A stretch of DNA of 64,000 bases from assembly GCF_000315625.1 (NCBI RefSeq), contig NW_005434661.1, forward strand, positions 601,548 to 665,547, read 5' to 3'. The position numbers and the translations under genes are program-made. The notes under the pieces are model-generated. The model was not told the origin of the DNA. It made no database searches and saw only the letters and a program-made list of their open reading frames with translations. The stretch comes from Guillardia theta CCMP2712 (Eukaryota > Protista > Cryptophyta). This document shows, piece after piece, positions 21,830-49,300 of this stretch (its first letter is position 1; each line of letters opens with the position of its first letter).

Positions 21830-22345
21830 CTTTACTCCGACGACCCGCCGCTCGATTGTTCGCAAGCCGGGCCGGGCAGCCCCGGCGGCCGAGCTCATCA
21901 TGTCGACTCGAGTCACCGTCAGATCCGGGACCTATCCGACCGGCGTGCTGACGGAGCACAAGTTTGTTAGACTTGTACTAGTCCAAAAGTCACGCAGATA
22001 TCACATCGACCTCAGTTGTAACAACACAGTTTTTGCTCAAGACCGAGTTTAATGCACACAAAACCAGAATTGAGGAGCACATGAGAGATAGACTGTATGC
22101 TAGGATGTGAAACCCAAGCATCCAGACATGAGAGGACCTTAGCAAGACGGCTAGGAAAGCCCCCTCTTCGTCCCACACGCTACATCGGCCGCCTCGCCAC
22201 GTAAGTCGTCTTGGTTTACAGGAGAGTTTTTGTTAACTCGGCGCTATCTGACTGGCACGGCTGGCATACGTTCCATCACGTGCTCGGAGTCACTACTCAG
22301 TGTTGTGCGGGCCCAGGTTCCGAGTTCAGGTTCAGTTCAGTTAAT
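21830..22345. promoter_or_regulatory. CCGG/GAGTC-rich intergenic island (interrupted by the solo LTR)
   Basis: gccgggccggg, ccccggcggccg, tcgactcgagtcacc, atccggg and gaccggc upstream of the AROM-like gene. Confidence 0.4.
21949..22278 (-). mobile_element. Solo LTR (330 bp) of a copia-type family
   Basis: Near-identical, in reverse complement, to 47492-47825 and 48704-49035. Ends are TGATGGAA...CTCCGTCA. A perfect 5-bp TSD CGTGC lies at 21944-21948 and 22279-22283. Confidence 0.93.
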
Positions 22346-46965: not shown

Positions 46966-47491
46966 GTTGGTACAGTTGGGCAGAGATGCTTGGTCAACAG
47001 GAGACAGGAAAGGAGAATGGTGGAATGCTGTTTAACTTCACCGCAATTTGTTTTAGAGACACTGACCAACAGATTCCTAGGCACAAAGGATGGTGTGATC
47101 TTACAACCCTCTGCCTCAAGTTGCTGGGAGGGCTTCAGGTCGGCAGTGGCTCTTCTCCTATGCGCTGCTTGCTCTTGGCTCCCCTCCGCGGGTGCTGCCG
47201 GACCTCAGTCACGAGGGCCCCCTCCTATAAAAATAATTTTAGTCATCATTTGAGATATAGTTCTGATACAGTGCGAGTTGCGGCAGTCCTGTACATGTGA
47301 CTCCGATTGTCCTCGTACTCATCAGTTTCACTCAACTTTGGGTACAGGTCATATGATCGCGCCATAAATTCACTCCTAGTACTGATTTTTAACTTAATTC
47401 TGAGTCGCCGGACCCGTGACCCGTGCCTCCGGGCGCCGCTCTCGGCCCCCGAGCCTGATGAGTCAGCCTCCGGCCGCGCTCGGACTCAGAC

Positions 47492-49035
47492 TGATGGAAC
47501 GTATGCCAGCCGTGCCAGTCAGATAGCGCCGAGTTAACAAAAACTCTCCTGTAAACCAAGACGACTTACGTGTTTGCGAGCCGCGGCCAATGTAGCGTGT
47601 GTGGACGAAGAGGGGGCTTTCCTAGCCGTCTTGCTAAGGTCCTCTCATGTCTGGATGCTTGGGTTTCACATCCTAGCATACAGTCTATCTCTCATGTGCT
47701 CCTCAATTCTTGATTTGTGTGCATTAAACTCAGTCTTGAGCAAAAACTGTCTTGTTACAACTAAGGTCGATGTGATATCTGCGTGACTTTGGACTAGTAC
47801 AAGTCTAACAAACTTGTATTCCGTCGGTTATGGGCCCCGATTACATGCTCAATCATGTTGATCTTATATTTGGTTAGTTGAATTGTTTACTGGAGTTTTT
47901 TTCTTTCTTGGTATTGTTTTCCCGTTGCTGTTGAAAATTCATGCAAATTCTATCAAGCTTTACACATTCGGATGACTCCTCTCTTCAATCAGGCTCTCTT
48001 TCTAGCCGCAAGTTGTTTAGGCCTCTCATCTCAGCCTCAATTTGTTTGATTGATCTTCGAATAGGAAAAACAAGCCTTTTCCCAGCCAGATTGGTCGGTC
48101 GAATATCTGCTTAACCGTGTGGAAACGCACTTGAAGCTGATTCGATTCTTATTTTCTTGATCTTTGAGTAGGATCAAATGGAACTCCCAGGAGATCTGGC
48201 GGAAGTTTCATGTCATGGAGCTAGGCTGTGGCATGCATAACTGGAGCTACTTCTGGATCGGCGAACAAGGTACTACTGCACAACAATCTTCAAATGCCTT
48301 GAAACGGATGTTCCAATCTTGCGGCAGCAATCTCTGGTCACAAGTTCTTTACGGTTCAAAAATTTATCTCTTGGTCTTCAAATGCCGGCGGGCACGCTCT
48401 CTCTCTCTCTCTCTCTGTTATCTGAACTCCGAAGTTCTCTCCTCAGACTCTCTTATCTTATCCTCCTTCTCTCGTCATTGCATCAGCTCGCCAGGCATCT
48501 CCCTTATCTCTGCACTGCACATCTAATAGCCCTGCATGAAAATCTTCTTCAGAATGGACAATCCTTGAATGGTTATTGCCCGCTCAGCTTGACTGTGAAC
48601 TTGACGTTGTATCATCGTATCTTGACTTGGATCTGCTGACATTCTTGTTTGTGTGACTTTCTGACGTCCGATGTAACGTACTATTTCAGAAACTCGGGGG
48701 GAGGATGGAACGTATGCCAGCCGTGCCAGTCAGATAGCGCCGAGTTAACAAAAACTCTCCTGTAAACCAAGACGACTTACGTGTTTGCGAGGCGGCCAAT
48801 GTAGCGTGTGTGGACGAAGAGGGGGCTTTCCTAGCCGTCTTGCTAAGGTCCTCTCATGTCTGGATGCTTGGGTTTCACATCCTAGCATACAGTCTATCTC
48901 TCATGTGCTCCTCAATTCTTGATTTGTGTGCATTAAACTCAGTCTTGAGCAAAAACTGTCTTGTTACAACTAAGGTCGATGTGATATCTGCGTGACTTTG
49001 GACTAGTACAAGTCTAACAAACTTGTATTCCGTCA
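47492..49035 (+). mobile_element. Non-autonomous copia-type LTR retroelement (TRIM/LARD-like, 1544 bp)
   Basis: LTRs at 47492-47825 and 48704-49035 appear to differ only by a 2-bp indel plus their terminal bases. PBS GGTTATGGGCCC at 47826-47837; PPT GGGGGGAG at 48696-48703; TSD CAGAC at 47487-47491 and 49036-49040. No gag/pol motifs were recognised internally. Confidence 0.93.
47826..47837 (+). other. Primer-binding site complementary to the anticodon arm of initiator tRNA-Met (half-tRNA priming)
   Basis: GGTTATGGGCCC directly after the 5' LTR; the same PBS type as Drosophila copia and yeast Ty5. Confidence 0.85.
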
Positions 49036-49300
49036 CAGACGCGGCGGCCCGGGCTCTTACATCGCCGGCAGCTGAGGGCGGGGTTCAACTTTGAGTGACT
49101 ATGGGATGAGCCTGTCGGAGGGTCACGGTTCTCACATCCGAGTGATAAACCGGATGCCACTGCCGCCGGCCCCGGCAGTGACCGGGCACCGGGCAGGCCA
49201 CCGGGGCCGCCAGGCCCGGGCCGCCGGCCGGGCCGAGCGCCTCGGCCCGCCGCCGCACTGGTCAGCGGCGGGCGGCCAGCCTGTCAGCCGCGCAGTATAG
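49036..49300. promoter_or_regulatory. CCGG-rich island (continuous with 47395-47491 before the LTR insertion)
   Basis: Very dense ccgg/ccggg on both sides of the element. Confidence 0.45.

Follow-up and report, generated by a model that had tools for sequence, protein, structure and literature searches.

A family of non-coding LTR elements in Guillardia theta carries the T and A of the canonical TG...CA termini at the outer ends of its insertions alone. The 5' LTR runs into the primer binding site (PBS) without a final A, and the 3' LTR starts directly after the polypurine tract (PPT) without an initial T. We observed this arrangement in the full copy located in the window (the whole 64-kb stretch of DNA analysed here), and contigs assembled from public sequencing runs confirmed that it holds family-wide and is not private to one copy. 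In agreement with this host, a protein encoded in the window matches one of Guillardia theta at 99% over 99% of the query. The explanation we favour, with a probability of about 0.65, is that an untemplated A is added to each blunt C-3' cDNA end by the reverse transcriptase (RT) of an unseen copia-type helper.

The full copy showed the features by which an LTR retrotransposon is recognised, namely two direct LTRs, a PBS, a PPT, a short target site duplication (TSD) and outer TG...CA ends (Table 1). The 5' LTR opened with TGATGGAA and closed with TTCCGTC, to which GGTTATGGGCCC adjoined, and the 3' LTR opened with GATGGAA right after GGGGGGAG and closed with TTCCGTCA. The outer ends formed an inverted repeat of 8 bp that contained one mismatch. 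The PBS was of the copia half-tRNA (Hemivirus) type and lay at the LTR border, its motif and position being those of the control copia loci described below and of Helenus. The LTR cores were 99.4% identical over 333 columns with one 2-nt indel, indicating that the insertion is young. One usual feature was absent from both the full copy and the family contigs: the two LTRs were not each complete from TG to CA, as the inner A and T were missing.

Table 1. Positions of the full element, its parts and junctions, and the solo LTR within the window
Feature	Position	Strand	Details
Non-coding LTR element	47492-49035	+	1,544 bp, 5-bp TSD CAGAC
Left TSD CAGAC	47487..47491	+	
5' LTR, 334 bp	47492..47825	+	outer T at 47492; last base C, without terminal A
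PBS GGTTATGGGCCC, half-tRNA-iMet type	47826..47837	+	start shared with fungal Helenus internal parts and control copia loci
Internal region, 878 bp	47826..48703	+	without detectable gag/pol remnant; multi-copy over whole length in public runs
PPT GGGGGGAG	48696..48703	+	G of 3' LTR directly after; GGGAG end as in control loci
3' LTR, 332 bp	48704..49035	+	first base G, without initial T; outer A at 49035
Right TSD CAGAC	49036..49040	+	
Left outer junction	47492	+	cagac / TGATGGAAC
5' LTR/PBS inner junction	47825/47826	+	TTCCGTC / GGTTATGGGCCC
PPT/3' LTR inner junction	48703/48704	+	GGGGGGAG / GATGGAAC
Right outer junction	49035/49036	+	TTCCGTCA / cagac
Solo LTR, same family, TG...CA	21949..22278	-	~96% identical; GCACG TSDs at 21944-21948 and 22279-22283

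The preliminary description of this DNA had stated that the outer ends read TG...CA while the A before the PBS and the T after the PPT were missing, and the four junctions bear this out. We combined four end registers with TSD lengths of 3-8 bp, and for the full element a perfect duplication appeared solely with the T..A register and a 5-bp TSD. An origin of T and A as target-derived bases through a 6- or 7-bp duplication was rejected, as no other register fitted. The solo LTR has both T and A with the TSD GCACG, as had been claimed for it. Because T..C with the 6-bp TSD AGCACG fits it as well, its A proves nothing alone; this doubt is removed by the family-wide contig data, which show the pattern. 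The solo LTR informs on outer ends only and is silent on the inner junctions.

In standard reverse transcription, the linear cDNA is bounded by the base that follows the PPT primer and the one that precedes the tRNA primer. Both LTRs derive from strong-stop DNAs, and any end base with a template therefore turns up at the inner junction as well. The earlier argument that a templated base should show in both LTRs holds under the standard model. The primer borders were fixed with a control set obtained from a copia RT scan of GTDB prokaryote assemblies, taking the best 80 of 86 confirmed loci (L047-L126). The control loci evidently stem from eukaryotic contamination; many are short contigs of that appearance.

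The strict half-tRNA-iMet PBS pattern occurred 15 times, in 12 of the 80 control loci, and each time the PBS followed an A (13 CA, 2 TA). Among the 41 GGTTATG sites in the control loci there were two more LTR-like junctions with CA (L050 and L083), and L098 had one with C; the remaining 23 sites were set aside as coding or chance, not each inspected. A T followed the PPT in 13 of the 14 A-bearing control loci, the PPT not being found in L081, although these PPT sites were chosen by eye, which biases toward T. When seven control loci were treated by rule, the first G-run past the pol stop was followed by TG in six, and the second G-run in the seventh. Several control PPTs ended in GGGAG and then TG. 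A PPT candidate without T in L051 proved to be the wrong site, and the real L051 junction has the T. In L072 all four junctions were canonical in four LTR pairs, two of which at least partly repeat the other two. L072:246-9143 contains a copia element together with short TRIM-like units (LTR ~90 bp, half-tRNA-iMet PBS, PPT) arranged nearly in tandem.

The controls share the PBS start GG and the PPT end GGGAG with the window's family, indicating that the primer borders of this family are the usual ones. With the borders set by the control loci, the absence of A and T from the inner junctions is genuine. The element resembles half-tRNA-iMet copia elements in its GGTTATG PBS at the LTR border, G-rich PPT, 5-bp TSD, outer TG...CA and short inverted repeat, and differs from the control copia loci with the same PBS in lacking the inner A and T and in coding for nothing. 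The preliminary description had further coupled the trait to half-tRNA-iMet priming. This part found no support: unrelated copia elements with the same PBS keep the A at all 15 strict sites, plus the T where the PPT was found, so half-tRNA priming does not in general bring the trait about.

The control borders also bear on a scheme in which both primers stop one base early and each strand opens with a T misinserted by the RT, the inner G having replaced T or A. A G does stand at the place of the missing base in both inner junctions, and a first-base error at the left end would appear in the 5' LTR alone, as seen. A T opening the minus strand at the right end, however, would reach both LTRs, so that CA would again precede the PBS, and the matching PBS start and PPT end of the controls argue that the borders are unshifted. 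We consider this scheme very unlikely.

One control locus deviated. In L098:5810-5990, T followed the PPT, and an LTR-like end in C adjoined a PBS-like GGTTATG. L098 has an intact copia pol (Pfam RVT_2 and rve) and is a single contig without outer ends. It is a possible second, one-sided case in which the terminal A is absent on the PBS side alone.

The stretch was present, whole or in part, in 20 of the 24 public runs listed, in every case as contigs, and no RNA data set was listed among the runs containing it. The comparison data are assembled contigs, not raw reads, and assembly drops rare variants; the runs may share one strain and are then independent assemblies, not independent genomes. 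Family contig depth was found in all 30 bins of the internal region. Four runs were compared over 47660-48870, where each inner junction occurs once. Loose contig ends past 47825 started with A and then diverged in 11 contigs of run X1 (agreement 0.47) and 10 of X4 (0.46), and loose ends ahead of 48704 finished in T in 18 contigs of X1, 13 of X4 and one of X6, all among the matches listed. These A- and T-bearing loose ends are the outer ends of many different insertions. The best 12 of 117 indel rows contained no indel at the inner junctions; the weakest X1 indel row listed stood at 811, and the summed X1 depth by the PBS was ~4,550. Flank-bearing contigs had a depth of 60-80, which suggests dozens of family copies, depth being no strict copy number. 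Record 29 of X6 spanned the PPT junction without a gap, and record 10 of X18 spanned the PBS junction with one gap located elsewhere. Each had 30 letters on the LTR side, and the bar for bridging was set one letter above these 30.

Three runs were compared against the solo LTR with its T and A included. Among the matches listed, LTR ends with A led into unrelated flanks in eight contigs of X1 and nine of X9, and LTR ends with T did so in 12 + 8 contigs of X1, nine of X9 and one of X19. In X19, one LTR end lacking A continued directly into the PBS (162 LTR letters, 167 beyond), the corresponding X1 match lying outside those listed, and LTR ends without T led to the PPT in four contigs of X1 (agreement 0.66) and two of X19 (0.88), again among the matches listed. 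In X9, the group without A comprised four contigs (agreement 0.59, consensus partly PBS-like) and that without T five (agreement 0.53, mixed consensus, partly PPT-like); some outer ends lacking the base may be among them. The PBS of the X19 contig was the commoner variant, unlike that of the full copy at 47492-49035, indicating that the missing A is common to different copies. This commoner PBS tail has A at 47833 and T at 47837, with a depth of 4,287 out of 4,553 in X1, and at least two PBS variants coexist in the family. We also searched for further copies in which CA precedes the PBS and TG follows the PPT, which the preliminary description had named as the result that would speak against it, and none appeared among the matches listed.

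These data largely refute the view that the full copy carries two private one-base deletions or assembly errors, or took its T and A from the target site. The public data bearing on the full copy are contigs without its private alleles (e.g. at 48000, 48080 and 48320), which leaves this view some room; the same junctions, however, recurred in contigs of several runs, with the commoner PBS variant included, and the single TSD register stands against target-site bases. We regard it as extremely unlikely. Another proposal is that a few canonical master or helper copies make their ends in a non-standard way, e.g. through co-packaged helper RNA or a transcript over both whole LTRs, the inner junctions then coming from a non-canonical template. 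The helper is unseen, and rare canonical copies would escape both the contigs and the matches listed; indeed, a minority of canonical copies may occur beyond those matches, where a further 401 and 240 loose-end rows lie. Strong-stop DNA of any source, though, supplies both LTRs and would give canonical inner junctions in the daughters, whereas the inner junctions in the contigs lack T and A. We therefore give such hidden masters little credence.

In the mechanism we propose, the finished cDNA would be blunt with C-3' on both strands, given the G after the PPT and the C before the PBS. The terminal transferase activity of the RT would then A-tail the C-3' ends to CA-3', integrase would join the CA-3' ends to a 5-bp staggered cut, and host gap repair would fill the five target bases and a T opposite the added A. 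Because standard reverse transcription would yield C-3' ends, integrated copies have CA and the target does not supply it, the outer A is probably added before integration, and because the added bases lie outside the RNA-inherited U5-PBS and PPT-U3 segments, the A would be made anew in each cycle. More speculatively, a highly efficient A-tailing RT combined with a non-trimming integrase may have favoured elements that had shed the templated A.

Tf1 LTRs carry templated TG...CA, and Tf1 is a self-priming gypsy element, unlike the family studied here with its half-tRNA-iMet PBS. The proposed likeness lies in the RT: that of Tf1 is described as adding nontemplated nucleotides to most cDNA 3' ends (PMC11042837, PMC3185545), which makes the RT the likeliest source of the A. 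As described there, the Tf1 additions are extra tails, not the source of the integrase CA. Ty1 has blunt cDNA and an integrase that requires terminal CA (PMC2939329). The family would share with Ty1 this dependence on terminal CA, the 5-bp staggered cut and the blunt cDNA; it differs in that Ty1 cDNA has complete LTRs at both ends, and the template here would give ends one base short.

The untemplated A might instead come from another enzyme, such as a host repair polymerase, a nucleotidyl transferase or an integrase-linked activity, or be placed at the end of the template, opposite a primer ribonucleotide that was left behind or damaged. The junctions tell us that the base is not inherited and cannot name the enzyme, and the predicted end structure and inheritance are identical to those of RT tailing. 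Moreover, an integrase that selects CA, as in Ty1 (PMC2939329), would filter mixed tails to A. Against this, the RT is present at both ends when synthesis finishes, with such an activity in Tf1, and a host step would be needed at both ends of every cDNA. We judge another enzyme rather unlikely and retain A-tailing by the RT.

Two points weigh against tailing by the RT. In the recycling model for Ty3, the jumping plus strong-stop DNA ends at U5 (PMC5371799). If the jump ended there in our family, an RT that tails efficiently would be expected to leave an A at many inner junctions, and none was seen among the matches listed. This points to copying of the PBS ahead of the jump, or to loss of products bearing A at the inner junction. 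The one-sided L098 case, if real, is one that tailing at both ends does not predict.

The element is non-autonomous. No Pfam family was found in 10 frames of the internal region, and tblastn against 20, 205 and 387 copia sequences gave no significant match to it. The gag/pol domains in the order protease, integrase, RT and RNase H were not detected in the element. A candidate RNase H remnant at ~48306-48380 was rejected, as its profile score of 0.5 bits was equalled by 13 of 200 shuffles. A non-coding, multi-copy internal region between PBS and PPT is the character of TRIM and LARD elements. TRIMs are below ~1 kb and LARDs several kb long, and the element, at 1,544 bp with 878 bp internal, falls between the two size classes. 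It is like TRIM and LARD elements, fungal Helenus included, in being non-coding with PBS and PPT kept and, presumably, mobilised in trans by copia, and like Helenus in its half-tRNA-iMet PBS and 5-bp TSD (PMC10886601). It differs from that group in its 1.5-kb length, and from the TRIMs with a small-RNA-like sequence in the LTR (Helenus, Cassandra and Ajax) in an LTR without tRNA-like or 5S-like sequence, the search for tRNA genes and for Rfam matches at E up to 1 having returned zero of each. In the Helenus records the internal parts are listed separately and the LTR junctions are not visible (PMC10886601). A tRNA-iMet was found neither in the window nor in 41 loci.

Half-tRNA-iMet priming is described in the Ty1/copia elements Drosophila copia, yeast Ty5, plant Osser, Bryco and part of Gymco-II, and such a PBS is reported solely for copia lineages (PMC6317226, PMC10886601); we therefore infer a copia helper. 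A Copia-like element is mentioned in G. theta, without sequence (PMC4642659). Scans of viral, metagenome and prokaryote-assembly collections yielded chance or unrelated matches and no autonomous partner. Family-specific DNA patterns gave 1 and 2 loci in viral contigs, all chance matches, and 43 loci in metagenome contigs, none with further similarity to the element. The copia RT pattern hit one plant-organelle remnant in viral contigs, which was used solely as a copia protein seed. This IMG/VR contig (L045) looks like mitochondrial DNA of a plant and contains a broken remnant of copia, its best protein match being named Arabidopsis mitochondrial, and it is probably not a virus genome.

In LTR elements and retroviruses, TG...CA on both LTRs is regarded as an invariant feature that is copied from the template. 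Integration ends are otherwise made blunt from the template, as in Ty1, or by 3' trimming, as in retroviruses. With T and A at the outer ends alone, every cycle has to produce the end base afresh. On balance, it appears that a cryptophyte copia lineage has moved the integrase CA out of its genome and made A-tailing by the RT obligatory in each cycle, which would constitute a third end-making route. Nontemplated addition by the RTs of LTR elements is already known. Neither its use as a standing source of the integrase CA nor the outer-only T and A were described in the literature searched, a scope that excludes most subscription papers, Repbase reports and the older work on the termini of copia, Ty5, Osser and Ty1. 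RT terminal transferase activity, usually viewed as a source of error, would thereby gain a required function, and the mechanism lends itself to direct tests, both in this alga, which can be cultured, and in vitro. For annotation, libraries that split the LTR from the internal consensus cannot reveal the pattern, and LTR finders requiring TG...CA on both repeats would be likely to misplace such elements or overlook them, so further cases may have escaped notice.

Within the internal region, the final 180 bases ahead of the 3' LTR (48521-48703) had a summed X1 depth two to several times that of the middle, which suggests that this segment is shared with further subfamilies or with the helper. 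Both family insertions in the window lie in GC-rich intergenic DNA with TGAGTC/TGACTC-type hexamers within ~40 bases (47401-47490 and 21910-22290). Such hexamers had 42 matches in the 64 kb and were also present in one X19 flank; their proximity to the insertions is a possible target preference.
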